Source: an uncultured delta proteobacterium (GTDB lineage: Bacteria > Desulfobacterota > Syntrophia > Syntrophales > Smithellaceae). Taken from it: a stretch of DNA of 64,000 nucleotides. Each line of letters starts with the position of its first letter. The first letter of the stretch is position 1. A program made the translations under genes and the position numbers. The stretch lies in contig CAVWEH010000005.1 of assembly GCA_963753975.1 (NCBI GenBank), positions 1 through 64,000 on the forward strand, written 5' to 3'. The notes beneath the pieces are model-generated. The model made no database searches. It was not told the origin of the DNA and was given only the letters and a program-made list of their open reading frames with translations. Shown here in pieces: positions 7,995-49,181 of this stretch.

Positions 7995-8123
7995 TCACGG
8001 GTATGAACCCAAAAACAAGTTTTGGGGTTCATACCCTCCGCTTCGCGGGATAATTCGCCCTGCAAGCTTCAGCGGAGTGACCTTTAGGTTATGCACTCCG
8101 TTTCTGAAACTTGGGTCTCATTA
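7995..8123 (-). repeat. Composite hairpin repeat locus A (expanded 54-nt unit at 8051-8123 plus downstream hairpin modules)
   Basis: Minus strand TAATGA GACC CAAGTTTCAG AA ACGGAGT GCA TAACCTAAAGGTCA CTCCG CTGAAGCTTG CA GGGC GAATTA, then TCCCGCGAAGCGGA and GGGTATGAACCC..GGGTTCATACCCGTGAT. Confidence 0.88.
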
Positions 8124-8181
8124 TAATTTACCAATTTCCCTGCACTTCGTTATGGAAATTGTAGTTTCAAAAATAAATACT

Positions 8182-8928
8182 TCAGTTTTCATCGCGCAGA
8201 TCATGCCCGGTCCGCTCCAAAAAAAACCTTTCCAGATTATCGATTTCGTTCATATCGCCGGAAAATACGACGGAACCATTGTCCAGGAGCGTTATTCTGG
8301 AACACAAGCGCTGCGCTTCGTCCATGATATGCGTGCATAAAACAACCGTTACTCCTGCTGTGTTCATTTTTTTTAACAGCTCATAAATATGATGGCGGCT
8401 CTGCGGATCAACTCCGACGGTGGGTTCATCCAACAACAGCAGTTGCGGTGAATGCAGGAGAGCAACAGCCAGATTTAACCGGCGCAACATGCCTCCGGAG
8501 TAGGTCGATACGCGTTTTCGAGCATAAGACAAAAGTCCTGTTTCAGTCAATACTTCCGCTGACCGTTCTTTTATAAGCTTGTCCGCAAGCCCAGCCATGA
8601 CGCCAAAGATGCGCAAGTTTTCCATCGCTGTTAGTGTTGTATATACCGATATGGGCTGAGGCGCGTAACCAATAAGATTTAATGCCTCTTTATTTACGTT
8701 TTTATAGCCGTAAATATTTATCTCCCCTGTGTATCCCCTCAACTGCCCGGTAATCAACCGCATCAGAGTGGTCTTGCCTGCGCCGTTCGGCCCTAAAAGG
8801 GCATGAAATTGACCGGCCTCCACAGACATGGAGAAATCACGCAGAGCGTGTTCATTCCCTGCTATACTTGATTTGTCCACCGGTTGATTGTAAGAAAAAT
8901 TTATTCCGGAAATTTCCAGAGCCTTCAT
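8182..8928 (-). CDS. ABC transporter ATP-binding protein
   Basis: GPNGAGKT, YSGGM, LLLLDEPT. Confidence 0.95.
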   Translation of the reverse strand: MKALEISGINFSYNQPVDKSSIAGNEHALRDFSMSVEAGQFHALLGPNGAGKTTLMRLITGQLRGYTGEINIYGYKNVNKEALNLIGYAPQPISVYTTLTAMENLRIFGVMAGLADKLIKERSAEVLTETGLLSYARKRVSTYSGGMLRRLNLAVALLHSPQLLLLDEPTVGVDPQSRHHIYELLKKMNTAGVTVVLCTHIMDEAQRLCSRITLLDNGSVVFSGDMNEIDNLERFFLERTGHDLRDEN

Positions 8929-9959
8929 GCCTTGAGATTCCTGACAACAGTATTAAGAGTTTTAAAAAACTCTTCTTCCCGTCCCGCGCAGATAAGCATC
9001 AATCCGCCTGCCTTGCCAAAGTTATCTTCGGACTGACCTCTTTGTTTAATGATCCGCGCAGACACCACGGCAAATTCGCGCCATATATCGCCGATGGCCG
9101 TCATTTCTTGCGATAATTGGCGAAGCTCCGCCGAACCAAAAAGATCGGCCGCCTCCTCAAGAAATGCGGCATACATGAAACGGAATCCCGCGCCGCCTGT
9201 GCCTACTTCTTCCTGCATGCGGACAACATTGGCCAGATGCCGACAGGCTTCATGAAAACCGATCTTATCAGGCATTTTGATAATTCTTTTGGCGAGCGAA
9301 CGTATACCGCGAATACCGAAAATCGGCAGGGGAATCTTCAACATCATATTGCAGGTATCCTTCATGCCTTTGATACAGGCCAAACGAAGATCAGGATTTT
9401 GAGGAATGGATTTTGGATAATACATAAACCCATGCGGCTCGAGCGGTCCACGCGCAAAACGCGCCCTTTCCAGATCTTCAGTCAGGCAATCCACAGGATG
9501 ATCCAGTACCGGATCACTGATACGGAAACCGTTTTCAATTTGGCACAAAACAATAATATTATGACCATTGAATTGAAAGCGGAAGCGATTGGGGAAATAA
9601 GAAAGCCAGTAGATGTTGGTCGTCAATCCCACAATCTGCCCTTCTTTCAACACGCGGCGCAATTCATCCATACCTTTTTGCGGATTACGGAAACGCTGCG
9701 TGACAAATTCACCCCCCAATCTTTTTGCCGCCTTGCGAAAGACAGCCCCCGGTTGAGACCGGAAAGTGCTGATCGGTAATCCGACCCATTTGACAAACGG
9801 CAGATGGCCGAAAAATATCCCGCTGCCGATGCCGAAAATCATGGCTTCGCTGATTTCCACTCCTTTATCCCTAAACAAAGCCGAAGTAACGCCGCTTTCA
9901 CAATGTGCTGAATGATGATGAATAAAAGGCTCTCCGCCTGCTGTCATTTCGGTAGTCAT
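8925..9959 (-). CDS. BtrH N-terminal domain / DUF4872 protein (papain-like hydrolase)
   Basis: HCESG Cys, FNGH His, EEVGTGGAGFRFMYAAFL motif. Confidence 0.8.
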   Translation of the reverse strand: MTTEMTAGGEPFIHHHSAHCESGVTSALFRDKGVEISEAMIFGIGSGIFFGHLPFVKWVGLPISTFRSQPGAVFRKAAKRLGGEFVTQRFRNPQKGMDELRRVLKEGQIVGLTTNIYWLSYFPNRFRFQFNGHNIIVLCQIENGFRISDPVLDHPVDCLTEDLERARFARGPLEPHGFMYYPKSIPQNPDLRLACIKGMKDTCNMMLKIPLPIFGIRGIRSLAKRIIKMPDKIGFHEACRHLANVVRMQEEVGTGGAGFRFMYAAFLEEAADLFGSAELRQLSQEMTAIGDIWREFAVVSARIIKQRGQSEDNFGKAGGLMLICAGREEEFFKTLNTVVRNLKA

Positions 9960-9978
9960 TTGCTGACTGCTACCTTTC

Positions 9979-10154
9979 TAATGAGACCCAAGTTTCAGAA
10001 ACGAAGTGCATAACCTGAAGGTCACTGCCGCTGAAACTTGCTGGTCGAATTAATGAAACTGCAATTCCGAAAGCCCAGCGCATCGGAATTGGTAAGTTGA
10101 ATTATCCCACAGCCGAAGGCTATTGGGATATCCCACATGCATAGCATTGTGGGA
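9979..10154 (+). repeat. Composite hairpin repeat locus B (units 9979-10052 and 10051-10104 plus two hairpins)
   Basis: Two tandem TAATGA..GAATTA units sharing a TA, followed by TATCCCACAGCCGAAGGCTATTGGGATA and TCCCACATGCATAGCATTGTGGGA. Confidence 0.9.
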
Positions 10155-10165
10155 CCGTATTGTAG

Positions 10166-10561
10166 TTATTTTGGTACTTTCATCAATTCTTCCCGGGCAA
10201 CCGCGAGTGCTTTTGCATAACGATCCAGAACTGACGATTTAAGTTTGGCAAAGACAGCGGGTCGGAAATGCCTTTTGACCCGAAAACAGGCAATCCCCGC
10301 AGTCTTAGCCAGAATCTCCGGCGTCATCTGCCGCCGCTCCATATGATATAAAAGCGGACTTTTTTCTCCCCGTATAACTTCCTGCCTTACACCTTCCAGT
10401 TTTGCCTCCAGTTCGGCAACAGCCAGGCCATTGACGATTTCTTCAGCACTCCAGCCGGAACTGGTAACAACGACATACTTTCCATCCTCGTTAAGAGCAT
10501 AACAGGCGCGCTTGTAACCTTCATAATAGGTAATCTCCTGTGGAACTTCATTCACTTTCAT
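10166..10561 (-). CDS. Conserved hypothetical protein of the type found upstream of BtrH-like genes
   Basis: 131 aa; MKVNEVPQ start and KSPLLYHME..VKRHFRP motif; GGAG RBS. Confidence 0.7.
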   Translation of the reverse strand: MKVNEVPQEITYYEGYKRACYALNEDGKYVVVTSSGWSAEEIVNGLAVAELEAKLEGVRQEVIRGEKSPLLYHMERRQMTPEILAKTAGIACFRVKRHFRPAVFAKLKSSVLDRYAKALAVAREELMKVPK

Positions 10562-10628
10562 TATCGGCTCCTGTCAGCGGATTTAGAGACCTTCTTATAC
10601 TAAATTCAACTGGACGAAAAGCAAATTT

Positions 10629-10823
10629 TAATGAGACCCAAGCTTCAGAAACGGAGTGCATAACCTAATAACCTGAAGGTCACAAGAGGTCACACATGCT
10701 GAAGCTTGCAGGTTGTAATGAGTCTAAAACTTCAAAAGCAAAGCGCATTGAAGTTTTTTAGCCGAATTATCCAATAGCCAAGGGCTATTGGAAATTATCC
10801 CCGAAGCGGAGCGGAGCCGGATA
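10629..10823 (+). repeat. Composite hairpin repeat locus C (units 10629-10715 and 10716-10769 plus hairpins)
   Basis: Two tandem units, then TCCAATAGCC AAG GGCTATTGGA. Confidence 0.9.
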
Positions 10824-10824
10824 T

Positions 10825-11739
10825 TTACTCCTTTTTATTTATCTTTTCACCTAGAAAGGGCTCGAAATGATGCCATTCGAACGGGTGCTTATCGGCCATT
10901 TGCATCAGTTCATTGGCATAGGTTTGTGCCGAGGCCGATACTGCTTTTTGACGATCGGCACGTGTTGCAGCTGAAACCCGCCGCCCTTGCGATACGGCGA
11001 TATGATATTTGTTGGACGCTTTCTGATGAACAAAAAAGGTCATCAGCGGCGCACCCGACATTAAAGCAAACAAATGGGGTGTGTCGGGCAGTTTTACCTT
11101 GTACCCCAGAAAGTCAACCACAACGAAACTCTGATTTCCCCACAACCGGTCGCCCGTCATGGAAACTATTCCGCCTTCCCGTAAGAAATTGATCCCTTCC
11201 AGAAGAGCAAAAGGAGAGCTTTCTTTATCCGACGTCGCCACTATTTTAATTCCGCTTTTAACCAGAAATTCTTTTTGCATGCGTTCGAGTTGCTCTTTGT
11301 GCTTCGCTCCCAAATACAGCATAATGGGCAATCCCTTGCGGTTCAACATTTGCGCCGCCAGCTCCCAGTTGCCGATATGCGACATTACCACAATAGCGCC
11401 GGTCTTTTTTTCTACCGCTTCGTCCAGATATTCCCATCCTTCTTTGGTAAATTCAAACTCTTCTTTTCCCAGTCCGACAAACCGGTGGAGATAGACATCG
11501 GTAAAGTTATGATACTGCTTCCATACACAATACAAATGATAGGAAAAACCTCGCATGGGGAACAACGCGCGGTAAAATTTCAGGCTGTGTGCAACGCGTA
11601 CCGGAAAAAGAAAAAAATAGCCGGTGGCAATAAACCAGGAAAAAGTGTGGAAAAACCACGCCCCCCAAAGCCGGGAAAAATAAATTGCTATGCGATATGA
11701 TAATATTTTCATAAAATGTAATCTAAGGCCATTATTCAA
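10825..11739 (-). CDS. Lysophospholipid / lipid A-type acyltransferase
   Basis: SHIGNWE, GDR and WHHFEPF motifs. Confidence 0.85.
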   Translation of the reverse strand: MNNGLRLHFMKILSYRIAIYFSRLWGAWFFHTFSWFIATGYFFLFPVRVAHSLKFYRALFPMRGFSYHLYCVWKQYHNFTDVYLHRFVGLGKEEFEFTKEGWEYLDEAVEKKTGAIVVMSHIGNWELAAQMLNRKGLPIMLYLGAKHKEQLERMQKEFLVKSGIKIVATSDKESSPFALLEGINFLREGGIVSMTGDRLWGNQSFVVVDFLGYKVKLPDTPHLFALMSGAPLMTFFVHQKASNKYHIAVSQGRRVSAATRADRQKAVSASAQTYANELMQMADKHPFEWHHFEPFLGEKINKKE

Positions 11740-14700
11740 GAGGTCTTATTACCGATAAACCATTTCTCTTCTATTCCTGATGTGTCGGAAGGATGAACGC
11801 TGACAAGGAAACCGGTTTTTTCCATAAAAGCCACTAATTTTTTTTCACTACGGAAACGTCCCGGTGTGTGAGTCAGTTTTAAGCGAGCAGTTTCTATCCA
11901 GCGCTTCCAGGGAATTTTTTTGTTCGATGGTACTGTCGCTCTTATCAGCAAAGTTCCACCCGCTTCCAGTTTACCGTAAATACGCTGCAAAACAAGTTGC
12001 AGTTCTTCATCGGAAACTAAATGCAGCATGTCCAGCATCAGCACACAGTCAACAAAACCTTCGACGGCAGGCAAGTCAGGCGCCCGGCCTATTTCGACAC
12101 TACCGCGAGTTCCTATGGCGCAAGATGCAATGAGCACGCGTATTTCGTCCGGCTCCAAACCATATACTTGAGCGGAAGGATAAATTTCCAGAAGCCAGAC
12201 GGCGGGAATTCCGTAGCCGCAACCGATATCTATAATCCGGCTGGGGTTTTGCACATACCTATCCAACTCTTTGAACATCGGATCAATCATAATTTTAAAA
12301 TGGGCAAAAAGCCGCGGATACGCTTCCAGATGGCGGTAACGCAATAGAGCACGCTTCCGATGCTCTTTTGAGCCTGTCTTCAATGGTCCGGAAGGAAAAT
12401 TAAACGGTGCATATATTTTCTTCACTAATGTCGGCAAAATAAGATAGGCTCCAATGATGGAGTAGCCTATGCCTAAAAGAGAGGTGAGGCCGATACTGCG
12501 CAAAAGATTGTGTCTGGCTATCGCCAATACACCGAAACCGACAAGCGTGGTAAAAGATGCCAGAAACATTGCCAGTTTGACGATGTCCATGGCAGGATGT
12601 TTTTCATCACGGTAGCGCTGATAAAAACAAGCATAATAAATAGAATAATTAATCCCCATGCCCATAATGACAATCCAGAGCATGATGCTGGGTATATCCA
12701 GAGGATGGCCGATGATTTGCAAAGTTCCCAGTGTGGCTACTAAAGCAAAAGTAATCGGGGCCAGCACCGCCAGAGATAGGAGCCAGTCAAGATAAAACAC
12801 AAAGACAATGACTACAGTGCCTATCCCTGTAATCAGTGCAATCTGGATGAAAATGCTTTTCAAAAAACTTCCCAGTTTATCGTTAAATAGACCGACATCA
12901 AATATTTTAGCGAGCCCCTGATGGGCGAGGCGCGATGCTAGATCTTCGGCATCGTAATTTTTGCCGGTTGTGATTAAGCTCAGTTGCGTATATTCGGTCG
13001 GGCTCTTGGTAATTCCAAAAAATTCAAAATATTTTTCCGGTATTTCTTCGGAATGTAAATTTTTATTATTCATTATTTTCCAAAAGGGCGCAAAAGCAGA
13101 AGGCGCAAAACCATTTTCTTTCGCCGCCACAGCCATATTTCGCTTTAGTTTGGCCAGGCGTTCCTTGCTCCAAAAGCCCTGCCAGGCTTCCATATTTTTT
13201 TTGCTCACTGCCGGCGAGGGAAACAATAAAGATGGAAGAAAAACCGAAGACAGTTTTTCCTTCTGAATATCGGCTGCCAAGATCGGCATTAACCGATCGT
13301 TTTTTTGCTGCAACTGCGCAATGCTGGGCGCTTGCAGAAACACATAACATTTGCCGGAAAAATCACCCCAAATATTCTGTAATGTCTTTTCGGCATGAAT
13401 TGTTTCTTTACTCACGGAATTCATGGCATTAATATTGGCATCAAATTCCGGATGGGCAAAAAAAAGCATCACCACTCCGAAAACAATCATTATCAGCAAT
13501 TTCCATTTGGCCGGAGTCGCAATCTTTTGCAGAGCATGCATAAGCAAGGGATTACTTTGATGCTTGGCAGGCGGCATCGATGGAAATATTTTCGGGAAAA
13601 TAAAAAGGACAAAAAGAAGAGCAAAAGTAACGCCCAGCGCAGAGAAAACACCAATTTCGGCAAGGATTTTAAAATCACTGATAAGCAATAGAAGAAAAGA
13701 ACCGACAGTCGTGAGCACCGCCAGAAGCTCAGCTAACCAGACCTCACGGGCCACCTGCCGCCCATATGTTTCTTTCGTCTGATCCAAAAAAAGCAAATAG
13801 GTAATGCCCAGATCAACCGTAAAACCCATTATCGCCCCACCGAAACCGATAGCGAGCATGGACATGGATTTAAAGAAAAAAGAACAGACGAACAAGGCAG
13901 TGATTGATCCCACTATCGAAGGCAACAGCGCCAGAAGACCAATGAGCGGACGGGGAAAAGCAAAAAGCAGCAACAAAGCTATGCCGACAGTAGTTAAGAT
14001 AATAGCGATTCGTGTATCGCGCTTCGCGGTTTGTTCATTATCCAGAGCCGCACGATATGCTCCGACCGGAGTTAGTACATATTTATCTTCGGCCAAAGTT
14101 TGATTGGACTTTAAATCCTGCTCGATATCTTTCATTAACTTCTCAATCTTAGCGGAGATCGCTGTATCCGTCCCTGATCCGGCGATCTTAGCGATGATGA
14201 GCGCGTGCTTGCCGTCTTCAGATATCAGCTGCCCCTGATAAAATTGAGTCTTATGGGCGGGAAGCAAAGCGGATAACTGCCGCAGGATTATGCCGGAAAA
14301 TCCCAGAGGATCTTTGGCCATCATTTCAGCCCGGCCGATTCCCTCCAGCTGTTCCAAACTTTTCCGGTTTTGGGCAAGAGCTTCTTTAATTTTCGCCGGC
14401 TCCAGGAGAGGTTTTATTTCTTTTTCTAATTGTTCCGTGCTGAAAAGAAGGGGCAAACTATTCATTACCTGCGCCATAAGCTCGGGAAAATTTTTTGCCT
14501 CGTCGCCTATGCCGACTTTGGTAAAAAGGCCGCTTTGCACGAGTTTATCCATTACTCTTGATACGGTTTTAACCAGACGATCCCTGTCGGGAGATTCCTG
14601 GCCCAAATCAATAAATAACTTATCCTGGATGGGTAAATGCCTGATGATCTGGCGCGCATCGGCCAGCACCGGATCATTGTGCGGCATTGATTCCAGGATA

Positions 14701-14807
14701 TCCGTTTCGATTTTTAAATGTTGGGATTCCCAGATGAAAAGTATTGCGACAACCAGCGCAACAATAAGGACAATCGGCCACTTTATTTGGTATTCACGTA
14801 GGGACAT
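11736..14807 (-). CDS. MMPL/RND-family exporter fused to a C-terminal class I SAM methyltransferase
   Basis: Two TM bundles separated by large soluble loops; C-terminal IIDIGCGYG and MLDMLHL. Confidence 0.85.
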   Translation of the reverse strand: MSLREYQIKWPIVLIVALVVAILFIWESQHLKIETDILESMPHNDPVLADARQIIRHLPIQDKLFIDLGQESPDRDRLVKTVSRVMDKLVQSGLFTKVGIGDEAKNFPELMAQVMNSLPLLFSTEQLEKEIKPLLEPAKIKEALAQNRKSLEQLEGIGRAEMMAKDPLGFSGIILRQLSALLPAHKTQFYQGQLISEDGKHALIIAKIAGSGTDTAISAKIEKLMKDIEQDLKSNQTLAEDKYVLTPVGAYRAALDNEQTAKRDTRIAIILTTVGIALLLLFAFPRPLIGLLALLPSIVGSITALFVCSFFFKSMSMLAIGFGGAIMGFTVDLGITYLLFLDQTKETYGRQVAREVWLAELLAVLTTVGSFLLLLISDFKILAEIGVFSALGVTFALLFVLFIFPKIFPSMPPAKHQSNPLLMHALQKIATPAKWKLLIMIVFGVVMLFFAHPEFDANINAMNSVSKETIHAEKTLQNIWGDFSGKCYVFLQAPSIAQLQQKNDRLMPILAADIQKEKLSSVFLPSLLFPSPAVSKKNMEAWQGFWSKERLAKLKRNMAVAAKENGFAPSAFAPFWKIMNNKNLHSEEIPEKYFEFFGITKSPTEYTQLSLITTGKNYDAEDLASRLAHQGLAKIFDVGLFNDKLGSFLKSIFIQIALITGIGTVVIVFVFYLDWLLSLAVLAPITFALVATLGTLQIIGHPLDIPSIMLWIVIMGMGINYSIYYACFYQRYRDEKHPAMDIVKLAMFLASFTTLVGFGVLAIARHNLLRSIGLTSLLGIGYSIIGAYLILPTLVKKIYAPFNFPSGPLKTGSKEHRKRALLRYRHLEAYPRLFAHFKIMIDPMFKELDRYVQNPSRIIDIGCGYGIPAVWLLEIYPSAQVYGLEPDEIRVLIASCAIGTRGSVEIGRAPDLPAVEGFVDCVLMLDMLHLVSDEELQLVLQRIYGKLEAGGTLLIRATVPSNKKIPWKRWIETARLKLTHTPGRFRSEKKLVAFMEKTGFLVSVHPSDTSGIEEKWFIGNKTS

Positions 14808-14964
14808 GCAAACCTATAAACTTACGGAGTTTTTATATCGGAAAACGTCTTCATAAAAACACATTTCTCGAGTGCTGGCAAGCTAAAAAGGTTTGAGGAA
14901 AAAGGTAAATTGTTATCACTGTGAGTGTAGCGAAATGACTGGAATCAATGAGCTAATGATTGAA

Positions 14965-15705
14965 CTAGCGCAGAGAAAATATCCGGCTGAAAATCAAACG
15001 TGTAAAAGTCGAGGAGTTGCGTAAAAAATCGACGAAAGGACGAAAATGAGAGATGCGAGAACCTGTGGGATTATAATTTACGCGCACCGGAACTTCTATC
15101 ACCGGCACACCATTTCTTTTGGCCCGCACCAATATTTCCACCTCAAATTGGAAACGCCGCGCCTTTGTGCCCAGATAAAGAGCCTGAGGCAAAGGATAAA
15201 TGCGCATGCCGCTCTGGGAGTCCAAAAGAGCGGGCCCACCGGAAATCCATACCCAGAAATTAGAAAACTTCCGGCCGAAACGACTAGTCCAGGGAACATG
15301 CTCACCAATCATGCCGTCTCTTACCCCCACAACAATCGGCCTTACTCCCCCCGGAATCGCAGCGATTAGTTTTAAAACATCTTCCGGATAGTGCTGGCCA
15401 TCGGCATCAATCGTAATTGCCCAATCAGCGGAAGCGGAGGCAGCTTTAAATCCACTCATCAGAGCCGCGCCTTTACCCATGTTTTTTTCATGACGAATGA
15501 TTTGAATTCCCTTAATTGCGGCAATTCTTCCAGGAGTCGCATCGGTCGAACCGTCATCAACGACAAAGACGGGGAAATTTAAACTGAGCGCTTCTCCGAT
15601 AACTTGTGCCACCGAATCAGCATGGTTGTAAACAGGAATGATAAAAGCAAATTTTCCTTTTTGATTAATTCCCGGCTCCGGTTTTTCTTTTTTTCTTTTA
15701 CTCAT
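14965..15705 (-). CDS. Glycosyltransferase family 2
   Basis: IIPVYN, DDGSTD, DADGQH, DSQSGMR, SHFRP. Confidence 0.92.
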   Translation of the reverse strand: MSKRKKEKPEPGINQKGKFAFIIPVYNHADSVAQVIGEALSLNFPVFVVDDGSTDATPGRIAAIKGIQIIRHEKNMGKGAALMSGFKAASASADWAITIDADGQHYPEDVLKLIAAIPGGVRPIVVGVRDGMIGEHVPWTSRFGRKFSNFWVWISGGPALLDSQSGMRIYPLPQALYLGTKARRFQFEVEILVRAKRNGVPVIEVPVRVNYNPTGSRISHFRPFVDFLRNSSTFTRLIFSRIFSLR

Positions 15706-36879: not shown

Positions 36880-37020
36880 AAACTCACCGCAAAACCTATT
36901 CAAACTTCGTAAATAACATATGCATTTAATTGATTAATGTCAAGACGGGGGGCGTGTTGACGGATCATGCCAAAAACTAAAATTAAATTGACATCTTCAT
37001 TGTCCAAAGCGTATATCAAA

Positions 37021-37152
37021 GTGGAGACTCTTCCGGTCGCAGATGACCTTTAGGTTACAGGAGCCGGAGGCTCCTTACAATAATGCGACCTCCCGCAGGT
37101 TACACCGCATTCCTCCTCCGGCTGAAGCCGAGGGGATTCCAAACCGCGGGAT
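37021..37152 (+). repeat. Repeat family 2, copy 1
   Basis: GTGGAG..GGTCGCAGATGACCTTTAGGTTACAGGAGCCGGAGGCTCC..TAATGCGACC..CGCGGGAT; aligns to 44186-44313. Confidence 0.88.
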
Positions 37153-37185: not shown

Positions 37186-37644
37186 ATGCAGCAGCCCCTG
37201 AACTTTTATAAAGGTATTCGTAAGCGCTCATCCACAATTGTTTTTGGCCTGCCGCTCTGGGCTATAGCGCTGGGGCCGGATCCCGAAAAAGGCGAGATTC
37301 GCGGCTATGCCCGCGGCTTTATTGCCATCGGCGATATCGCCAGAGGCTTCATTGCTCTGGGTGGTGTTGCTTACGGCGGAATCGCCATCGGCGGCCTTTC
37401 CCTGGGTCTCGTTTCGCTGGGCGGTCTGAGCGTGGGGCTTTTTGCTTTCGGCGGATTAGCCATCGGCGGCATTGCTTTCGGCGGCGCGGCAATCGGCATC
37501 GTCGCTATCGGAGGAGCCGCGTTTGGATACTATGCGCTGGGCGGCGGCGCTTTCGGCAAATACGTTGTTTCCGCAATGGAAAGAAACCCCGAGGCTGTCG
37601 AATTTTTCAAACAATTGTTTCCGAATCTACCGATAATGAAATAG
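37186..37644 (+). CDS. Glycine-rich membrane hypothetical protein
   Basis: FGLPL, then repeated G(x)IA(I/L)GG pentads. Confidence 0.75.
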   Translation: MQQPLNFYKGIRKRSSTIVFGLPLWAIALGPDPEKGEIRGYARGFIAIGDIARGFIALGGVAYGGIAIGGLSLGLVSLGGLSVGLFAFGGLAIGGIAFGGAAIGIVAIGGAAFGYYALGGGAFGKYVVSAMERNPEAVEFFKQLFPNLPIMK

Positions 37645-41018: not shown

Positions 41019-41048
41019 AGCAAACTTTTTTATATAGGAGGTATAACT

Positions 41049-41434: not shown

Positions 41435-43390
41435 TTAAATATCCCAGGTAAAGATCACGCCGCTGGTGGGGAAAATCCATTCCTTAGCAGAAACTTTCAC
41501 TCTAACAAATTTACCTTTACTTGAGATAACCGCAGGCGACGGATGTCTTCCGGCAAAAAAGCTTTCTGCTTTAACATTTTTCAGCTTTGCTTTTTTATAG
41601 CTGAAGTTAATATCCACACCTCTTGTAGGATAAACAAGATATACGGGGAAAATTTTGTTATCTTTTGACTGTTTGGTGGTAATTTCTATTTCGATTTTTG
41701 CCTCTTTGTTTATTTTCTCTTTGAGTTTCTCAGTGCCGCACCAGACTTCGTAGCCGCGCTCGGTTTTTTTTGCTTCAATGATAGGAATATTTTTGTCATC
41801 GACACGCACACGCTCAACGGTAAAATCGCGTTCCATGACCAAATTCCCGCCGTCGCTCAGAAGCCAGCGGTATTCGCAGCGCGGGTCTTCAAACAATTTT
41901 GCCAATTGCGAATTGTTCAGCGCGCAGCCGATCATAAAAACATTGTTTCTGATTGTTTTTTTATACTCGATGCGGGTGTTGACGCGAAAATAATGTTCGG
42001 CGTTCGCGCCGTTTTTTCTTCTCGTCGGAATTTGCGCAATGCGGATATTGTAGCGAAAACCGGAACGCAATTCGAGCTGGCGGTCTTCCTTGCCGAAAAG
42101 TGTTTCAAACATTTCGTAGTAGATGGCATTGCCCAACTCCTCATCGTGCGCACGCGCCTGCAGACAATGGCGGATAATATTGTCGATGCGGGAGATGGAT
42201 TTTTCCTCGTCCGGGACAAATATTCGTCTCAGCCGCGGCTCTATCGTATCGGTTTTCCCTTTCTGCAGAAATACTCGCGGCGCTCTTTTACCTAAAGCGC
42301 AAAGAACTTCATAGCTGATAGTCTTTGCTTTTTGGGCAATCTCGTTGGCACTGATGTATTCCTTGCCCTGCCTGCCCAAAAGGACAACCTCGTCGCCCAC
42401 AGCACAGCGGGGAACATCGGTAACATCGATTGTGCACATATCCATCGAAATCCTTCCGACAATCGGCGCGCGCCGGCCGCGGATCAAAGCCTCGCCCTGG
42501 TTGGAAAGAATAAAAGCATAGCCGTCCCCATAGCCTACCGGAATAGTGGCGATGCGGGTTTTTCTTTCAGTTACATAGGTACTGCCGTAACCGATGCCAT
42601 ATCCTTCAGGAAAATCTTTCAATAAAACAACACTGGTCTTAAAGGACATCACCGGGAGAAGCTTTGCTTTGAACTCAGTTTCCCCAGAAGGATAAATTCC
42701 GTAAGCCATGAGACCGGGACGCACCATATTCAGTTTGAATTCGGGGTAATTTAAAATAGCGCCGCTGTTATCTATATGCCGGAGGGGAATGTTTATTCCC
42801 AGGCTCTCGAGGGAGGCAAGAACATCCGAAAACAGATGCCATTGCTTATCATTGTAAGGAAGCATAACTTCGCTTGAAGCAAAATGGCTGAAGACCCCTT
42901 CCAGCTCAATATTGGACAGCTTGGCTATTTTCAGGATAAGCTTCAACGCTTCGGTGTGCATAGTTCCGCCACGCCCCATACCGGTGTCCACTTCAATATG
43001 CACAGGTAATTTTCGATTCGATTTTTTCAACGCTTTATGCAGCTTTTTGGCGAAATCGGCATCCGAAACGGAAGGGGTGAGCTTGTATTTGATAATCTCA
43101 TCGATTTCGGCTGTGGTTGACGGCCCTAAAATAACGATTGGCGCCTCTATGCCGCTTATTCTCAATTGAACGCCTTCGTCCGCGTTGGCTACGCCGAACA
43201 TCTTCGCACCGTTTTTTAAGGCGGCATTCGATATTTCTATGGCGCCGTGCCCATAAGCATCGGCTTTGACGGCCGGCATAAAATCAACTTGCGGTCCGAT
43301 CAGTCTTTTTATTTCCTTTAGATTACCGATGAAATTATCCAGATCAACTTCTACCCAGCTGCGATATTTCTGTTCTGTTTTTAACGGCAT
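41435..43390 (-). CDS. alr: Alanine racemase with ~280-aa C-terminal extension
   Basis: AVKADAYGHG, VDTGMGR, VRPG, GYGSTY, GYGDG, GRISMD, TISYE. Confidence 0.92.
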   Translation of the reverse strand: MPLKTEQKYRSWVEVDLDNFIGNLKEIKRLIGPQVDFMPAVKADAYGHGAIEISNAALKNGAKMFGVANADEGVQLRISGIEAPIVILGPSTTAEIDEIIKYKLTPSVSDADFAKKLHKALKKSNRKLPVHIEVDTGMGRGGTMHTEALKLILKIAKLSNIELEGVFSHFASSEVMLPYNDKQWHLFSDVLASLESLGINIPLRHIDNSGAILNYPEFKLNMVRPGLMAYGIYPSGETEFKAKLLPVMSFKTSVVLLKDFPEGYGIGYGSTYVTERKTRIATIPVGYGDGYAFILSNQGEALIRGRRAPIVGRISMDMCTIDVTDVPRCAVGDEVVLLGRQGKEYISANEIAQKAKTISYEVLCALGKRAPRVFLQKGKTDTIEPRLRRIFVPDEEKSISRIDNIIRHCLQARAHDEELGNAIYYEMFETLFGKEDRQLELRSGFRYNIRIAQIPTRRKNGANAEHYFRVNTRIEYKKTIRNNVFMIGCALNNSQLAKLFEDPRCEYRWLLSDGGNLVMERDFTVERVRVDDKNIPIIEAKKTERGYEVWCGTEKLKEKINKEAKIEIEITTKQSKDNKIFPVYLVYPTRGVDINFSYKKAKLKNVKAESFFAGRHPSPAVISSKGKFVRVKVSAKEWIFPTSGVIFTWDI

Positions 43391-43785
43391 ATATATTCAG
43401 TCCGAGAGATAATTATCACTTCGTTTTCATGGTCAATACCCCGTCCCGAGGCTGGGCCGGCGGCTTTGGCTCCCGACACTTTTAATTAATCTATTAATTT
43501 AGCCATAGTGGTTCTGGGCCAGGGTCAGCGGCCAAGCTCTGAAATGCTTTTCTCGTCATGGTTAAATATTTTATACTATGCATCACCTAAAACATTATTT
43601 TAATTGAAGCTTACCGCCGCAGAATCATATCAAACCGTTGATGAAAGTCAAGCTGTCTATGCTTTTCAAAAAATAAGCAAAAACAGCAAATATGTGCTTG
43701 AAAGAAAAAATTATTTTAATTAAAATTAAATAAGTGATACTGGTGGATAAATATCCAACATATAAAGATCGAGGAGGAAAGGCAA

Positions 43786-44040
43786 ATGTCGAAAGCAAAG
43801 ACCGGAGATGTTCTTAGTTGTGAAGTATGCGGACTTACCGTAATCGTGGACGAAGAATGCGGGTGTGCTGCGGTCGGAGTTACCTGCTGCGAGGAACCCA
43901 TGATCAACAAGGGACCGGCAGCGCCAAAGAAAAAAGCCTTATTAAAGAAAACAAAATCGACAACAAAAAAGAAAATGGCGAAAAAGAAACCCGCAAAAAA
44001 ACCACCGGCAAAAAAGAAGGCAACTAAAAAAAGAAGATAA
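43786..44040 (+). CDS. Small Cys-rich metal-binding domain with Lys/Ala/Pro-rich tail
   Basis: GAGGAGG RBS; CEVCG..CGC..CC..PM, then KKK-rich tail. Confidence 0.8.
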   Translation: MSKAKTGDVLSCEVCGLTVIVDEECGCAAVGVTCCEEPMINKGPAAPKKKALLKKTKSTTKKKMAKKKPAKKPPAKKKATKKRR

Positions 44041-44067
44041 TTAACCGTTGTGGTGACTTCTCTGTTT

Positions 44068-44096
44068 TTATAGAGCCTCCTTGTGGGGCTCTATAA
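44068..44096 (+). terminator. Probable terminator hairpin
   Basis: TTATAGAGCCTC-CTTGT-GGGGCTCTATAA with T-rich sequence shortly downstream. Confidence 0.6.
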
Positions 44097-44185
44097 CCTG
44101 TACTTTTTACAAAAGCGACGGCAATTACATTGATATTTCCGACAGGAAGTCCTTTAATTTTCTCCGCAGGCAAATATTTCTATCA

Positions 44186-44313
44186 GTGGAGCCCCTCTGG
44201 TCGCAGATGCCCTTTAGGTTACAGGAGCCGGAGGCTCCCTAAAATAATGAGACCCCCCGGGTTACGGTGTTTTCTTCCCTCGGCCGAAACCGGGGGATTT
44301 CAAGTCGCGGGAT
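44186..44313 (+). repeat. Repeat family 2, copy 2
   Basis: Aligns to 37021-37152; ends just before the SRAP RBS. Confidence 0.88.
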
Positions 44314-44322
44314 TGAGGAAAT

Positions 44323-44943
44323 ATGTGTGGAAGATTTGTTTTAATGAGTAATGCGGCTAAAATTGCCGAGGAATTTAATTTAGCCGCCGTCACCTCGTCG
44401 CCCATCCCTTCAGGAGATATTCACCCCAGTGAAAAAGCCGTCTGCATAGTGAGCGAAGACAAGAAGAACATCCTGCAGGTTTGGCGATGGGGATTTTTTT
44501 CGCGCCAGCCGAAGCCGACGACAAAATCCGCATTACTGATCAATGCCCGTGCGGAAACTCTGGCTGTAAAGCCAACTTTCCGGGAAACTTTTCAAAAAAG
44601 AAGGTGCCTGGTAGTCGCTGACGGATTCTACGAGTGGTCCAAAGAAAAAAAGCCGTATTATTTTTATCTACAAAGCCACAGACCTTTCGGATTAGCGGGC
44701 ATCTGCGACGAACCGCAACTTCCGGCAACAGGCCGTGAGGCTTCTTTCGTCATTATCACCACCAGCCCCAACCGGCTCGTCTCCCCCATCCATAACCGCA
44801 TGCCGGCTATTATCCCGCATGATGAACAAGCTCTATGGTTGGATAACAAAAAATACAACGAATCAGAATTGCAATCCCTAATGACGCCTTATCCGGCGCA
44901 AGAGATGGAAATGCGACCGGCAGCCTTTATTACCGGCCATTAA
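44323..44943 (+). CDS. SOS response-associated peptidase (SRAP/YedK family)
   Basis: MCGRF N-terminus, INARAET, RRCL..GFYEW, IHNRMP. Confidence 0.95.
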   Translation: MCGRFVLMSNAAKIAEEFNLAAVTSSPIPSGDIHPSEKAVCIVSEDKKNILQVWRWGFFSRQPKPTTKSALLINARAETLAVKPTFRETFQKRRCLVVADGFYEWSKEKKPYYFYLQSHRPFGLAGICDEPQLPATGREASFVIITTSPNRLVSPIHNRMPAIIPHDEQALWLDNKKYNESELQSLMTPYPAQEMEMRPAAFITGH

Positions 44944-45019
44944 GTGGAGCCCCCTCCGGCGGGTTACGGCGCTTTCCTCCCCCGGCCGGAACAGTGGGAT
45001 TCCAAGTCGCGGGATCCAC
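44944..45019 (+). repeat. Repeat family 2, copy 3 (lacks the internal module)
   Basis: GTGGAGCCCC..GGGTTACGG..GGGATTCCAAGTCGCGGGATCCAC; GTGGA/TCCAC ends. Confidence 0.8.
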
Positions 45020-45028
45020 GCCTTTTTC

Positions 45029-45817
45029 TCATCGTTCTTTTCCCCATAAACAAATCGGCAGCCTCATCTGCGGCAATTTGTCGCCTTCATACAATATTTT
45101 TTCCAGGAACAATCCGGAAGGCGGGGCGGTATATCCGGCGGGAATTGAGGAATAAGATTCGAGCATCAATTCTATATCGCGGATAGAGAAATTGCCGCGG
45201 CCGGCCTCGACAGTAATTCCCACTATGCGCCGCACCATTTTCCAGAGAAAATGAGAAGCAACAAAACGCAGGGCGATAATGTCCTCGAATTCTTTTAACT
45301 CCACTCTTTCCATTTTGACTTCCGTGGATGTGTCTTTATCCATCCTTTTATCGGCAAAAGAGATAAAATTATGGAATCCCTGAAAAATGCCCAGCGACTT
45401 TTGCATCTTGCCGAGATCGAGCTTGTCTTTGATCCACCAGACATAACGCTTGCCGAAAGCGGTGCGTCTCTTCGCGATTAGATATAGGTAACTCCGGCCA
45501 AGGGCGTTATGGCGCGCGTGAAATCGCTCCGGGACATTTTCGATCTGCAATATATTAATGCTCGCGGGTAAGTTATCATTAAGGCCGATACGAAGAGTCT
45601 CCGTATTAATTTTCCTGGAGGCTTTCAGATGCGCTACTTGCGCCAAAGCGTGAACCCCGCTATCCGTGCGTCCGGCTCCCTGAATTTCTACCGGCGTCCC
45701 TAAAACATTTTGTGCCGCACCGGTTAAAGTTCCTTGAATACTTTTGGCATTTTTCTGCGTTTGCCAGCCGCTGTAATTGGTTCCGTCGTATTCCAAAATA
45801 ATTTTATAATTATACAT
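45029..45817 (-). CDS. truA: tRNA pseudouridine(38-40) synthase
   Basis: EYDGTNYSGWQ, AGRTDSGVHA, FHARH, FLWKMVR. Confidence 0.95.
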   Translation of the reverse strand: MYNYKIILEYDGTNYSGWQTQKNAKSIQGTLTGAAQNVLGTPVEIQGAGRTDSGVHALAQVAHLKASRKINTETLRIGLNDNLPASINILQIENVPERFHARHNALGRSYLYLIAKRRTAFGKRYVWWIKDKLDLGKMQKSLGIFQGFHNFISFADKRMDKDTSTEVKMERVELKEFEDIIALRFVASHFLWKMVRRIVGITVEAGRGNFSIRDIELMLESYSSIPAGYTAPPSGLFLEKILYEGDKLPQMRLPICLWGKER

Positions 45818-45818
45818 T

Positions 45819-45980
45819 CAATGACACTCGCTGACTATAGGAAGCGTTAGTTGAATTGATCCCGCCATATAAGGCGGATGGTATCACAGATACCCGTGAT
45901 TAATGAAACTCAGATATTACCAGCGAAGCGCAGCAATATTTGCAAGTTGAATTGATCCCGTAGCCAAGGCTATCGGGATA
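45819..45980 (+). repeat. Composite hairpin repeat locus D (short unit 45819-45858, full unit 45901-45954)
   Basis: CAATGA..GAATTG, then ATCCCGCC..GGCGGA..ATACCCGTGAT, then TAATGA AACT CAGATATTAC CA GCGAAGC GCA GCAATATTTG CA AGTT GAATTG, then ATCCCGTAGCCAAGGCTATCGGGAT. Confidence 0.85.
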
Positions 45981-45998
45981 CTCTAAATACCGCTCGGT

Positions 45999-47384
45999 TC
46001 AGGGCTTATCCTGAGAGTCAATACTACCTTGTTTTGGCCGCTGACTTTGATTATAAGGCACCAATACACTCATAGCGGAAATTCTGTTCAGTAAATAGTC
46101 TTCCTGCTGGTCAATGAAATTTAACTCATATCCGAGACGCAAAGTGGTAATTACGGCTTGCCCGATGATTTTTCTGCTTTCTTTGCCTGCAGAATCTCTT
46201 GTTTTTATGCCCCAAATATTATGGAAAATAAGCGCATGACCGTTATATTCGCCAATGTACAGCATGACATGACCTTTTCGCCAGAGCAAACTCAAATAAG
46301 GAATTCCTTTCTCCAAAATGATTTTTTCCTTTTGTTCGGGAGAAAGACCTTGCAGTTCTATGTAATTCCCCACTTCTTTAACTTGATCTTCCGAGTGCCG
46401 CGGCAGCCAGATACCGAAAGGGGCAAAAAAATCTCTCGTCATGGACGAACAATCCCGATTGCCGTAAAGACCGCCCCAGCCATAAGATTCGCCGATTAAT
46501 TCATCGCCAATCTTTGCTGCGTTGGCATAATTGAAACGCAAAGGTTTGACCGCCGAAATTTCCCGGCTAACGAAGCCGTGCTTGATTATGGCATTCGTGT
46601 TTTTATCAGTCGCCGCAACAAGTATTTCCAGTTTATCCGGCATTTCTTCAATTAAGGGGAAAATATAGCCGAGTGAGGATCTCAGAATGAAATTATCGTC
46701 GGCATCCAAAATAGAAGTTTGATCCCTGGTAATTACGGCATAACGGCCGGACTCCCATGTTTTTATGAAGCCGGCATCGACACGCGCAAAGTCCTCGACA
46801 GGTATCCAGCCGAAAGTATAACAGGTTTCCACAAGAGCCCAAGCTTTGTCGGCACTGATATGGCAAACAAATATAGGCGTATTTGCGGCCACAGACGACC
46901 TCTGCAAATTATCAAAAGGCCAGCCGGAGTTATCGCCTTCGGGGCTACTAAAGTGCGGACCCTGTACGGGCAGAACGCGGAGATTGGTGTTTCGTGTTGT
47001 TATGGCAAAATATAGTGCATTGGGATAGGTTTTTAAAAAAGCATTTTGCTGGAGTTTTTTTATCCAAGCCTTAGAATGTTTTATTTTGTTTTCACCGTAA
47101 CCAAGGCTTACGCTGAATTTTTTAAAATCAAGAGATACTCTTTCGGGCAAAGCATAAAAAGGCTGACACTGGTGCCAAACAGAAAAGTAAATAATGTTAT
47201 AATCTTCATCCATTAGCGATTGAGTTTCTGCCGCAAGAATATCTTTTGCCTTGACCGCATCACTCAAATAAAAAGCATGACTTTGATGCAACTCGCTTAC
47301 GTCTTTGACAATATCTGCCTGCTTCAAACAACCGGCCAGCAGAAAGAAAATCGGCAAAACAGCAAAAGGAGTTCGTATTTTCAT
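45999..47384 (-). CDS. NlpC/P60 lipoprotein with SH3 domains (peptidoglycan endopeptidase)
   Basis: LAGC lipobox, YGWGG..RDCS, LPRHS, GHVMLY. Confidence 0.9.
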   Translation of the reverse strand: MKIRTPFAVLPIFFLLAGCLKQADIVKDVSELHQSHAFYLSDAVKAKDILAAETQSLMDEDYNIIYFSVWHQCQPFYALPERVSLDFKKFSVSLGYGENKIKHSKAWIKKLQQNAFLKTYPNALYFAITTRNTNLRVLPVQGPHFSSPEGDNSGWPFDNLQRSSVAANTPIFVCHISADKAWALVETCYTFGWIPVEDFARVDAGFIKTWESGRYAVITRDQTSILDADDNFILRSSLGYIFPLIEEMPDKLEILVAATDKNTNAIIKHGFVSREISAVKPLRFNYANAAKIGDELIGESYGWGGLYGNRDCSSMTRDFFAPFGIWLPRHSEDQVKEVGNYIELQGLSPEQKEKIILEKGIPYLSLLWRKGHVMLYIGEYNGHALIFHNIWGIKTRDSAGKESRKIIGQAVITTLRLGYELNFIDQQEDYLLNRISAMSVLVPYNQSQRPKQGSIDSQDKP

Positions 47385-47562
47385 GAAAAAATACCTTGAT
47401 TTAATTTTATAGGTTTTTATAGTCTTTTTTTAAGTTTTGAGCAAGATTAAAGAACGATGAATAATTTTTTTTCAGCAGTTGATAAATAATTTTGTGGCAT
47501 AAGATATCGAACACTGATATAAATGAAATAAATATTTCGGACGGGAAGAAAGGAGTTGACAG

Positions 47563-48111
47563 GTGGAAGATTTTGTACCCAGAAGAATTTTTTTTACAAA
47601 AGGGGTCGGCACGCACAAAGATGAATTGCACTCCTTTGAACGTGCCTTAAGAGATGCAGGAATAGAAAAATGCAATTTGGTGCAGGTATCCAGTATATTT
47701 CCGCCTCGCTGCAAAATAACTTCCAAGTCGCAGGGACTCAAAGGCTTAGTACCCGGAGCCATTACCTATTGCGTCATGAGTCGCTGCTGCACCAATGAAC
47801 CTAAAAGGCTCCTGGCGGCATCCGTTGGTTGCGCCATCCCTGCTGATAAAGCATCTTATGGATATATAAGCGAGCATCACGCGTATGGTCAAACCGAAAA
47901 ACAAGCGGGCGACTACGCGGAGGACTTGGCTGCGGCCATGCTGGCCTCCACTTTGGGAATTGATTTCAATGTGGACGAAGGCTGGGATGAAAAAAAGGAA
48001 ATTTTTAAAATAAGCGGCAAGATTGTTCGTACCCTCAACGTAACCCAATCAACAATTTGTAAAGATAGTCAATACACCACGGTAATGGCTGCGGCTGTGT
48101 ACGTCTTTTAG
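47563..48111 (+). CDS. pdaD: Pyruvoyl-dependent arginine decarboxylase
   Basis: [25 protein letters not shown] (Ser-Ser cleavage site), YGYISEHH. Confidence 0.9.
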
Positions 48112-48148
48112 ATATGGGCTGATAGGAATCGGCAACGGCAAGAATTGT

Positions 48149-49024
48149 ATGCCTGAAAATGTTTTTAAAAAAGAAATTCCGGAGTTAAAGATGCAAGATG
48201 TCGGCGGAGCCGATTTACCCTACCTTTACTATGAGGGAGAAGCTTCGCCGATTCTTTTTGCCCATGCGACAGGTTTTTTGCCCTGGCTCTGGCATCCGGT
48301 AATAAAACAGCTTGTGCCGCAAAACCAAATTTGGGTGCCGTATATCTGCAATTATCGCGAGTGTGATCCGGAAAAAGGCGGGCTAAGCTGGGACATTATC
48401 GCCAAGGATATATCAACCTTTTGCCGTTCTCTCAAAATCAAGAATCCTTTGTGTGTCGGGCACTCCATGGGCAGTACAGTACTGACCATCGCCGCCGCCG
48501 GTTACGGCATAGAACCTCGCGGCATGATTTTAATCGAACCGATTTTCCTGCCGGAAGAATTTTACTCCTTGAAAGCCACAGTGAAAGATCATCCGCTGGC
48601 TTCGAAATCGATAAAAAGGACAAATCATTGGAAAAATGAAGACGAAGCCTGGGCTTATCTAAAATCAAAACCTCTTTTTTCCGATTGGGATGAGGAAGTT
48701 CTGACGCTATACCTCAAATACGGCATGGAAAAACAAAAAGCAGGAGATTTAAAACTTGCCTGTACGCCGGAAAGCGAGGCGGCGATGTTTATGGGCGGCT
48801 GGAGCAGGAATCCCTGGCCGCTGCTCGATAAATTGACTTGTCCGGTGTTGGTTGTGGAAGGAGAAAAAAGCGAAAATAAAAAATTTATCGATCTGAAAAG
48901 AGCGGTATCTTTATTGCACCGCGGCAAATATAAGTTAGTTGAAGGAGCCGGGCACTTAATCCCCATGCAGAAGCCCAAAGAAGTAGCTCAAATCATAAAA
49001 GAATATTTAGCGGAAATAATATAA
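48149..49024 (+). CDS. Alpha/beta hydrolase
   Basis: HATGF, GHSMG, GHLIPM. Confidence 0.9.
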   Translation: MPENVFKKEIPELKMQDVGGADLPYLYYEGEASPILFAHATGFLPWLWHPVIKQLVPQNQIWVPYICNYRECDPEKGGLSWDIIAKDISTFCRSLKIKNPLCVGHSMGSTVLTIAAAGYGIEPRGMILIEPIFLPEEFYSLKATVKDHPLASKSIKRTNHWKNEDEAWAYLKSKPLFSDWDEEVLTLYLKYGMEKQKAGDLKLACTPESEAAMFMGGWSRNPWPLLDKLTCPVLVVEGEKSENKKFIDLKRAVSLLHRGKYKLVEGAGHLIPMQKPKEVAQIIKEYLAEII

Positions 49025-49034
49025 ACCGCAAAAA

Positions 49035-49181
49035 TCACAGGTATGAATTTCAAAGCAAGCTTTGGGAACCTTTCCGCAGCGAACCGCGCGACATTTATAT
49101 TGCCCCGCTAAGCTTCACCCGCGGGATCAATTCGACCAACAAATTTCAGCGCACTTTGTTTCTGAAATTTGGGTCTCATTG
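49035..49181 (-). repeat. Composite hairpin repeat locus E (full unit 49128-49181)
   Basis: Minus strand CAATGA GACC CAAATTTCAG AA ACAAAGT GCG CTGAAATTTG TT GGTC GAATTG ATCCCGC; distal TCACAGGTATGAA..CAAAGCAAGCTTTGGG resembles locus A. Confidence 0.87.

Follow-up and report, generated by a model that had tools for sequence, protein, structure and literature searches.

A dispersed 54-nucleotide hairpin repeat with covarying stems and constant ends in Smithellaceae genomes and phages

The first 64,000 nucleotides (nt) of contig CAVWEH010000005.1 (assembly GCA_963753975.1), hereafter called the window, come from an uncultured delta proteobacterium of the family Smithellaceae and carry, between their genes, several copies of a small hairpin whose stems differ in sequence and are still paired. 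The question raised by this locus is whether such hairpins are RNA elements or mobile DNA and, if mobile, what moves them. The genome of the window (G000) is a 95%-complete draft of 2.43 Mb in 6 contigs. We lean towards regarding the hairpins as lineage-specific selfish, non-autonomous palindromic cassettes, which form a mosaic in the intergenic DNA and the phages of the Smithellaceae, resembling that of repetitive extragenic palindromes (REPs) and bacterial interspersed mosaic elements (BIMEs).

Unit architecture, covariation and distribution

All eight hairpin copies listed by the first-pass annotation of the window are present on the strands and at the positions given in Table 1, each folds as had been described, and the consensus derived from them is correct, as seen in a gapless alignment (A1) of 60 copies, of which four are in the window and 56 elsewhere in the genome. 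From the outside inwards, the unit consists of a 4-bp base (YAAT/ATTR) and a symmetric G-A/G-A internal loop, beyond which a 4-bp stem is continuous with a 10-bp stem (14 bp) except for a 2-nt bulge on the 3' side. The apex is a 12-nt loop with a small RC-NNA-GY stem (RCRNAGY mini-hairpin), and the whole comprises 54 nt with 18 stem pairs and two internal irregularities. Columns A2, A3, T4, G5 and A6, together with G49, A50, A51, T52 and T53, are invariant in the 60 copies of A1, and A8, C9, C11, A22, A27, G28, G42 and G46 are near-invariant. The ends (YAATGA...GAATTR) and the loop (RCRNAGY) are thus constant, and the stem sequences are free.

A strict regular expression with pairing rules gave 193 hits in the genome, compared with 18 in a reversed-genome control, and 72 of the 193 were exactly 54 nt long. 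A1 was picked from these 72, a closed outer stem, a folded minimum free energy below -9 kcal/mol and non-identity being required; pairs 1-4/51-54 and 7-10/45-48 are therefore biased, because the filter demanded the outer stem and the folded structure, and the selection bias on the 10-bp stem and the mini-stem is indirect only. In A1, 94.6% of the cells are paired, with changes on both sides in 17 of the 20 pairs. The observed covariation values were reached by none of 500 shuffles, and pairing fell to 24-40% when the register was slid by 1-3 columns. A covariance model (R1) was built from A1, and 128 matches from other genomes (124 distinct, 91 loci), located by R1 or by a pattern that fixes the constant positions only, were fitted to it as a second alignment (A2), in which 95.4% of the cells are paired and double changes occur in 18 of the 20 pairs (124 distinct copies). 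The proposal that structure rather than stem sequence is conserved is borne out by the covariation in both alignments.

The earlier count of eight copies at five loci was right about the copies and understated the system, which is family-wide, mosaic and built from several module types. R1 matches 138 of the 150 candidates scored in G000 (1080 candidates at first look), and an nhmmer search with the A1 profile returned 203 hits in 121 arrays, divided 100 to 103 between the two strands. Recurrent spacer DNA, found in at least three other spacers, adds up to approximately 26.9 kb, corresponding to 8.8% of the spacer DNA and 1.1% of the genome. Among 40 relatives, R1 matches were found in 21 of the 24 other genomes of the same family (named Smithella or Smithellaceae), many of them reaching the scoring ceiling; in other families of the order, the one genome of a second family has 5 matches and the 15 genomes elsewhere have none. 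Within the genus, copy counts range from more than 130 down to 0, the latter in G014 and in G003, which is 95% complete.

A pattern scan of one genome per species gave at least 133 stretches, and nearly all of the 80 listed are titled Smithella, Smithellaceae, Syntrophaceae or 'delta proteobacterium'. Among the stretches listed, three (loci L084, L112 and L143) are in bins labelled Bacteroidales, Mariniphaga and Woesearchaeota; these are true units, because they score 62-75 bits, and their contigs were likely mis-binned from Smithellaceae, so that the repeat could serve as a binning marker. The plasmid and phage collections of GenBank gave no match to a 182-nt array in a distant-mode search. 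Among the public sequencing runs listed, the best DNA runs share at most 0.13 of the sampled words, and none is an RNA run.

Viral contigs also carry the repeat. The pattern scan of IMG/VR found 16 stretches on 13 contigs (loci L273-L288), where R1 confirms 24 matches, and the open reading frames (ORFs) beside these units encode a Mu-like major head protein and protease, Mu Gp36/Gp37, GemA, a tail sheath, a lambda-type portal and a large terminase. The repeats thus colonise, or travel with, phages, which presumably infect this clade, judging by the shared repeats, and the copies in phages could explain the patchy distribution. On one viral contig (L281), two units 944 nt apart flank the Mu-like major head gene, and one of them overlaps its 5' end by 13 nt.

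Gain, loss and exchange of arrays

Orthologous regions of genomes of the same genus were located by BLAST and then aligned. Close species differ by the gain, loss and exchange of units and of whole multi-module arrays. G011, which is 89-93% identical in the flanking genes, is without all three arrays at 7997-10812. The block of array 1 (7997-8171), missing there, is present in G013, which has a 54-nt unit at the 8.1-kb site where the window has a 73-nt form. Array 2 (approximately 9979-10157) is absent from all four relatives compared (G011, G013, G006 and G003), as is array 3, and array 5 (49025-49181), which G011 and G013 have, is absent from three of five relatives (G010, G002 and G006). 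The 45.8-kb spacer holds a different module series in each of six species, with fixed left and right borders, and where the window has the 40-nt copy 6, the unit in G011 is of the same type and a full 54 nt long. Loop-expanded and shortened copies are true derivatives, relatives carrying 54-nt units at the orthologous sites of copies 1 and 6.

Exchange in place is seen at 49.1 kb, where G000 and G011 are identical at 64 of 70 positions in the upstream flank, at 18 of 18 in the unit ends and at only 12 of 36 in the unit interior, which belongs to a different subfamily in G011. Compared with G007, G000 carries in the xerC-hslV spacer one additional 72-nt unit, which follows the GAAT of a unit already resident there. 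Composites of several modules, 130-226 nt long, recur at unlinked loci with 90-97% identity, and a 'nested' composite (C5:574979-575110) recurs in G002, G013 and G010.

No target duplication was found in the filled and empty sites of arrays 1, 2, 3 and 5, nor at the xerC-hslV gain, where only GAAT is shared, and models with TTAA, TA or AAT as the duplicated target were rejected, as the empty sites do not fit them. Position -1 is T in 35 of the 46 units with a unique 40-nt upstream flank (background 31%, p = 4e-10), and 13 of these 46 have a run of at least four T in the last 10 nt upstream (background 9%, p = 1.4e-4). Several of the upstream T-runs belong to terminator-like hairpins, whose T-tails they form, and another is the 3' end of a tRNA. 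Units enter immediately 3' of a T, which is often that of a terminator T-tail or of the GAAT of a resident unit, and no target is duplicated.

The arrays are mosaics, in which 54-nt units are mixed with core-only hairpins that have no outer stem, with TCCC..GA-GCGAAGC-GA..GGGA mini-hairpins that repeat the G-A and GNA-triloop design, with perfect 9-bp hairpins and with GGGTAT..ATACCCGTG hairpins. The loops of units take in modules of 19 nt, of approximately 60 nt or even a whole unit, and tandem units meet at a constant junction, GAAT|YAATGA. All units have one orientation in 43 of the 44 multi-unit spacers. By a crude ORF call, the 203 nhmmer hits comprise 152 intergenic, 13 partial and 38 'genic' ones, the last probably including spurious ORFs called over arrays. 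Spacers that carry units (n = 110) have a median length of 291 nt, compared with 77 nt over all spacers.

The R1 scan of the window, run with filters off, gave 8 matches, namely seven of the copies noted earlier and one weak extra unit, which had not been among the eight and lies within the block absent from G011 (Table 1). The four 54-nt copies score 63.5-76 bits. Copy 1 has the 54-nt architecture with a 19-nt insert (ATAACCTAAAGGTCAC...) inside its loop. Copy 4 is too expanded to be returned by R1, and nhmmer recovers only its 5' half (10629-10660). The module type that follows copy 6 comes after units at many loci, and the small hairpin that closes array 4 is kept at the right edge of that array in G010, G002 and G006. 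Copies were said to occur both sense and antisense in one operon, and this holds, copy 1 sharing its strand with the minus-strand genes around it and the copies at 9979-10769 being on the opposite one.

Table 1 Hairpin units and accessory modules of the arrays in the window (positions in nt of the window; bit scores from R1)
Feature	Position	Strand	Evidence or remark
Accessory modules closing array 1	7997..8050	-	TCCCGCGAAGCGGAGG mini-hairpin and GGGTATGAAC...GTTCATACCCGT hairpin
Copy 1, 73-nt loop-expanded unit	8051..8123	-	25.9 bits at 8054-8120; folds
Weak 'core-only' hairpin unit, first module of array 1	8121..8172	-	16.5 bits, E 0.22; folds
Copy 2, 74-nt loop-expanded unit, first module of array 2	9979..10052	+	31.0 bits at 9983-10048
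Copy 3, 54-nt unit	10051..10104	+	66.5 bits; 'TA' common to copies 2 and 3
Two small accessory hairpins closing array 2	10105..10157	+	TCCCACAGCC..GGCTATTGGGA; TCCCACATGC..GCATTGTGGGA
Copy 4, 87-nt loop-expanded unit, without 3' GAATTR end	10629..10715	+	Folds; nhmmer
Copy 5, 54-nt unit	10716..10769	+	70.9 bits
Accessory hairpins closing array 3	10770..10812	+	TCCAATAGCC..GGCTATTGGA and CCCCGAAGCGGAGCGG stretch
Copy 6, 40-nt deletion derivative	45819..45858	+	38.2 bits
Accessory module, two hairpins with common GGG	45859..45900	+	ATCCCGCC..GGCGGATGGTATC..GATACCCGTGAT
Copy 7, 54-nt unit	45901..45954	+	63.5 bits
Small accessory hairpin closing array 4	45955..45980	+	ATCCCGTAGCC..GGCTATCGGGAT
Accessory modules of array 5	49025..49127	-	Folding, orthologous comparison
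Copy 8, 54-nt unit, first module of array 5	49128..49181	-	76 bits

A distance of 2 nt separates the beginning of array 4 from the start codon of the minus-strand gene at 45029-45817, leaving no room for a separate ribosome-binding site, and this start codon is abutted by a repeat unit in all six species compared. The N-terminus of the gene product resembles that of a tRNA pseudouridine synthase, which the gene may encode. A second dispersed module of approximately 130 nt, which contains a TAATGAGACC and a GACCTTTAGGTTA motif, the latter also filling expanded loops, occurs in the window at 37020-37152, 44185-44320 and 44960-45015 and gives 20 BLAST hits over the whole genome. In the window, the ORFs that start at 37187 and 44323 each have a copy directly upstream, and some copies elsewhere adjoin hairpin arrays (e.g. 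C4:299030-299101).

Contig C4 holds near-identical inverted array pairs, of 124 nt at 96.8% and of 162 nt at 95.7% identity (276852-281175 and 295092-299252), each enclosing 4 kb of ordinary genes (hydrolase, Sir2 and CBS in one; nitroreductase and PolX-type polymerase in the other). These blocks could be invertible or recently colonised segments. In low-copy species, a few units stand in the same housekeeping spacers in two or three species (L244/L247/L258; L253/L265; L251/L255; L268 and G000:C2:523161-523232), the shared sites being after the terminator of an ATP-synthase c / RF-1-domain gene, upstream of sodA, after a transpeptidase gene and between xerC and hslV. Apart from the hairpins, the window has direct repeats at 61169-63054 with 381- and 405-nt spacing (families D2, D4 and D5), which are in coding sequence and look like the tandem sensor-domain repeats of a large signalling protein.

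Nature of the element and candidate movers

If the hairpins were functional structured RNAs, either processed small RNAs or elements of mRNA stability or processing whose G-A motif and loop bind a protein, the strong covariation with constant unpaired bases would be readily accounted for, being the classic signature of structured RNA. Also in keeping with an RNA are the stability of the strand bearing the GA motif, which under RNA parameters is predicted to exceed slightly that of its complement in 82 of 111 copies, the position of many arrays immediately behind gene ends or terminators, and the persistence of a few copies at shared housekeeping loci in several low-copy species. The orientation of units is, however, random relative to the flanking genes (57 sense and 66 antisense in tandem spacers), and divergent, promoter-promoter spacers are not depleted, being hit as often (14/317) as tandem (80/1743) and convergent ones (16/319). 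Among 80 full copies there are 35 G-T and 49 A-C pairs, i.e. G-U is not favoured over A-C, and this speaks against a functional RNA, since selection in place should tolerate G-T and purge A-C; the numbers agree with copies in which the fold is required only at the time of copying and which drift thereafter. Moreover, arrays are dispensable between close species and units are without a T-run of their own directly after them. Rfam provided no match either: only a tRNA reached threshold when the whole window was searched at gathering score, and the best match in 7950-10850 up to E = 5 was STnc490, at 24.4 bits against a gathering score of 56. A function as RNA therefore appears unlikely. The first-pass annotation had argued against an mRNA leader, which agrees with a dispersed repeat whose orientation is independent of gene direction, and had also allowed for an independent small RNA, which finds no support in the random orientation and the lack of a wobble-pair excess; its preference for a DNA-level mobile repeat fits the gain and loss of arrays, their orientation and the pairing data better.

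As DNA, the unit may be recognised in single-stranded form. GCGAAGC occurs 93 times in the spacers compared with a median of 21, and ranks third of 210 permutations, and GCGNAGC is described as an extraordinarily stable DNA mini-hairpin (PMC13037366). Under DNA parameters, the GA strand is predicted to be slightly more stable than the other strand in 94 of the 111 copies. This strand stability and the GCGAAGC excess would suit a single-stranded DNA form and are no proof of one. A likeness to domain V of group II introns was considered and dropped, as the helix and bulge spacing differ.

Integron integrases act on folded attC sites, and Xer acts on folded phage DNA. The units could likewise be recombination cassettes, with YAATGA/GAATTR as the crossover sites at which a recombinase acting on the folded strand, XerC/XerD or an unrecognised one, lets arrays grow and swap. 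This would account for the clean cassette swap with identical ends at 49.1 kb, the addition of exactly one unit after a resident GAAT in the xerC-hslV spacer, the constant GAAT|YAATGA junctions, and arrays at 45.8 kb that differ per species within fixed outer borders, and the architecture, with paired ends, an unpaired spacer, a bulge, a variable stem and a loop of variable length, would in principle parallel that of attC. G000 has five matches to the tyrosine recombinase profile PF00589, one of which is XerC in its usual xerC-hslV setting. The attC cores RYYYAAC/GTTRRRY are nevertheless not conserved in A1, no gene cassettes stand between units, and two of the five PF00589 matches, compared with TIGR02249, stayed below its cut-off of 265 bits, with 143.7 and 55.6 bits. 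The only extra integrase, of 384 amino acids, was rejected as the cause, being found in 2 of 41 genomes, and Xer, being universal, cannot explain 0 to more than 130 copies in genomes of the same genus, so that we consider a recombination cassette distinctly unlikely. Least probable, in our judgement, are domesticated signals of chromosome architecture or replication, read at the level of DNA, such as sites for nucleoid protein or gyrase, or for single-strand priming, which would have spread secondarily. Binding of gyrase or nucleoid proteins has been proposed for the BIMEs of Escherichia coli, and the even spread (approximately 121 arrays in 110 spacers, on all large contigs), conserved ends and loop at a fixed distance, suggestive of a protein that measures the hairpin, and the retention of some copies at conserved loci in low-copy species are in keeping with such a role. 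A slight lean of arrays to the leading strand by local GC skew (47 vs 30) could be added to these, but it is not significant (Fisher p = 0.10, in a 6-contig draft with weak skew) and equals the gene-strand bias. Such signals are also hard to reconcile with copies inside phage genomes, with arrays that come and go between species 87-93% identical, and with the absence of R1 matches from G003, of the same genus and 95% complete.

In the reading that we prefer, that of non-autonomous selfish cassettes, an enzyme acting in trans would recognise a folded single DNA strand by its shape and constant unpaired bases, copies would decay after insertion, and the conserved ends would permit exchange of cassettes between arrays. 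Several observations weigh against it. The lean to the leading strand, weak and non-significant, is not the strong strand bias expected for IS608-like single-strand transposition. Gene conversion between repeats, instead of transposition, could lie behind the swaps in place and the array differences; neither an excision nor a circle junction was seen, and the unit ends are not defined by any duplication. The units in the housekeeping spacers of low-copy species are old insertions, some of which could have been retained for a function, and the A-C excess gives a hint that folding may involve the complementary strand or neither of the two. An enzyme also failed to appear where it was looked for: G000, G002, G005, G010 and G011, each with more than 110 repeat matches, have no match to PF01797 (Y1 HUH), and the profiles for IS110, TnpB, rve and DDE_Tnp_1 have none in G000. 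Since this draft is 95% complete and in 6 contigs, an enzyme encoded on unassembled or unbinned DNA is possible, and its absence is not proven.

The HUH or IS110 partner put forward in the first-pass annotation, including a REP-associated tyrosine transposase (RAYT), was accordingly not recovered. PF01797 is present in several genomes without the repeat, and no R1 units lie within 1.5 kb of the Y1 genes at 6 loci; a RAYT/IS200 partner was rejected on the grounds that high-copy genomes have no PF01797 and Y1 genes no units beside them. The control of the Y2_Tnp search matched in no genome, so its silence in G000 carries no weight. The sole RVT_1 gene of G000 belongs to a type VI retron, a helix-turn-helix protein followed by a 292-amino-acid reverse transcriptase (C2:428994-430180; L218:4995-6181), and a reverse transcriptase was rejected as the mover because this retron occurs in only 3 of 41 genomes. 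Also rejected were the 6.9-kb contig C3 as an insertion-sequence source, as it carries housekeeping genes, and the genes between the inverted arrays of C4, which are ordinary enzymes. No gene-bearing parent element was found in G000, where 18 end pairs 150-6000 nt apart are chance or two separate units, and its multi-copy proteins form 17 small paralogue groups, none of them large. In five low-copy genomes, 29 repeat matches lie beside ordinary genes, and no transposase was found among the 85 ORFs scanned, which are housekeeping genes.

Judged from these profile searches, the mobilising enzyme would not be a recognisable RAYT/IS200, IS110, TnpB or DDE transposase. A candidate that we put forward tentatively, as a possibility rather than an expectation, is a structure-reading DNA-mobilising activity, neither HUH, DDE, IS110 nor reverse transcriptase, that would copy or exchange 54-nt cassettes at the fixed YAATGA/GAATTR ends, insert them 3' of T-tracts with no duplication, nest them in one another's loops and spread them through the Smithellaceae by way of phages.

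Meaning and comparison with known systems

Few parts of bacterial genomes are as poorly understood as small palindromic repeats, and to our knowledge the GTAG class alone among REPs has a plausible enzyme. The present family is unusually well defined: its length is fixed, its unpaired bases are constant, its stems are free and it has several types of module. Its sharp presence or absence between close species, together with its occurrence in phages, makes it a good system for studying how orphan hairpin repeats move. The clade has hundreds of metagenome-assembled genomes, which favours phyletic profiling. If a novel mobiliser does exist, a gene that tracks the copy number (0 to more than 130 in one genus) would bring to light a transposase or recombinase of a new, hairpin-specific class. 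Smithella is a key syntrophic degrader of alkanes and fatty acids, and the repeats have a practical bearing on its annotation and binning, since they abut start codons and terminators and occur in bins assigned to other phyla. The literature search found no description of these repeats, and as far as it and Rfam go the family appears to be undescribed.

With miniature inverted-repeat transposable elements such as Correia/NEMIS and RUP, the hairpins have in common their short length, abundance, inverted-repeat arms and closeness to gene starts and ends. They differ in having no target-site duplication at the five sites compared, in arms that covary rather than present one fixed transposase-binding sequence, and in the lack of a gene-bearing parent with the same ends in G000. 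The IS200/IS605 elements insert 3' of a short motif without target duplication and use single-strand intermediates (PMC6006769). Hairpin DNA and insertion 3' of a short motif without duplication are likewise features of the present family, as of IS200/IS605 and their miniature derivatives, the palindrome-associated transposable elements, whereas Y1 and TnpB are missing from G000, a single symmetric hairpin replaces the distinct left and right ends, and no strong replication-strand bias showed in the 6-contig draft with its weak skew.

The attC sites of integrons have paired ends, an unpaired spacer, extrahelical bases, a variable stem and an apical part of variable length. In principle, the present unit is similar in that structure is kept while sequence varies, in its short constant ends, unpaired spacer and extrahelical bases, and in the variable length of its apical part. 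It differs in that the RYYYAAC/GTTRRRY cores are lacking, AAC/GTT occurring in one subfamily only, in that units abut without gene cassettes, and in that no integron integrase was recognised among the two recombinases tested.

REPs are described as palindromes of 20-40 bp with a GTAG or CGTC tag, mainly found between unidirectional and convergent genes (PMC3733652), and REPs and BIMEs as non-autonomous mobile DNA that is handled as single strands (PMC3733652, PMC6006769). The present repeats are like them in being high-copy, clade-specific intergenic hairpin palindromes in mosaic arrays with short motifs; they are unlike REPs in their 54-nt unit, in an A1 consensus with no GTAG or CGTC, its constant parts being YAATGA...GAATTR and the loop motif, and in not avoiding divergent spacers. 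They are unlike REPtrons in that most high-copy genomes have no RAYT and the Y1 genes at 6 loci are not flanked by repeats. The mosaic of a palindromic unit and other conserved motifs, characteristic of BIMEs, is present here. Neighbouring units of a BIME mostly alternate in orientation, whereas those of the present arrays are co-oriented in nearly every multi-unit spacer.

Among the orphan repeats, the CGTC-tagged REPs have no dedicated transposase known (PMC3733652). These, BOX of Streptococcus pneumoniae and the enterobacterial repetitive intergenic consensus (ERIC) are, like the present family, dispersed and structured and have no dedicated transposase known. In sequence the family is unrelated to all three, and it is set apart from them by its strict length, tandem G-A mismatches, GNA mini-hairpin loop and nested modules. 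BOX has a modular A-B-C build.

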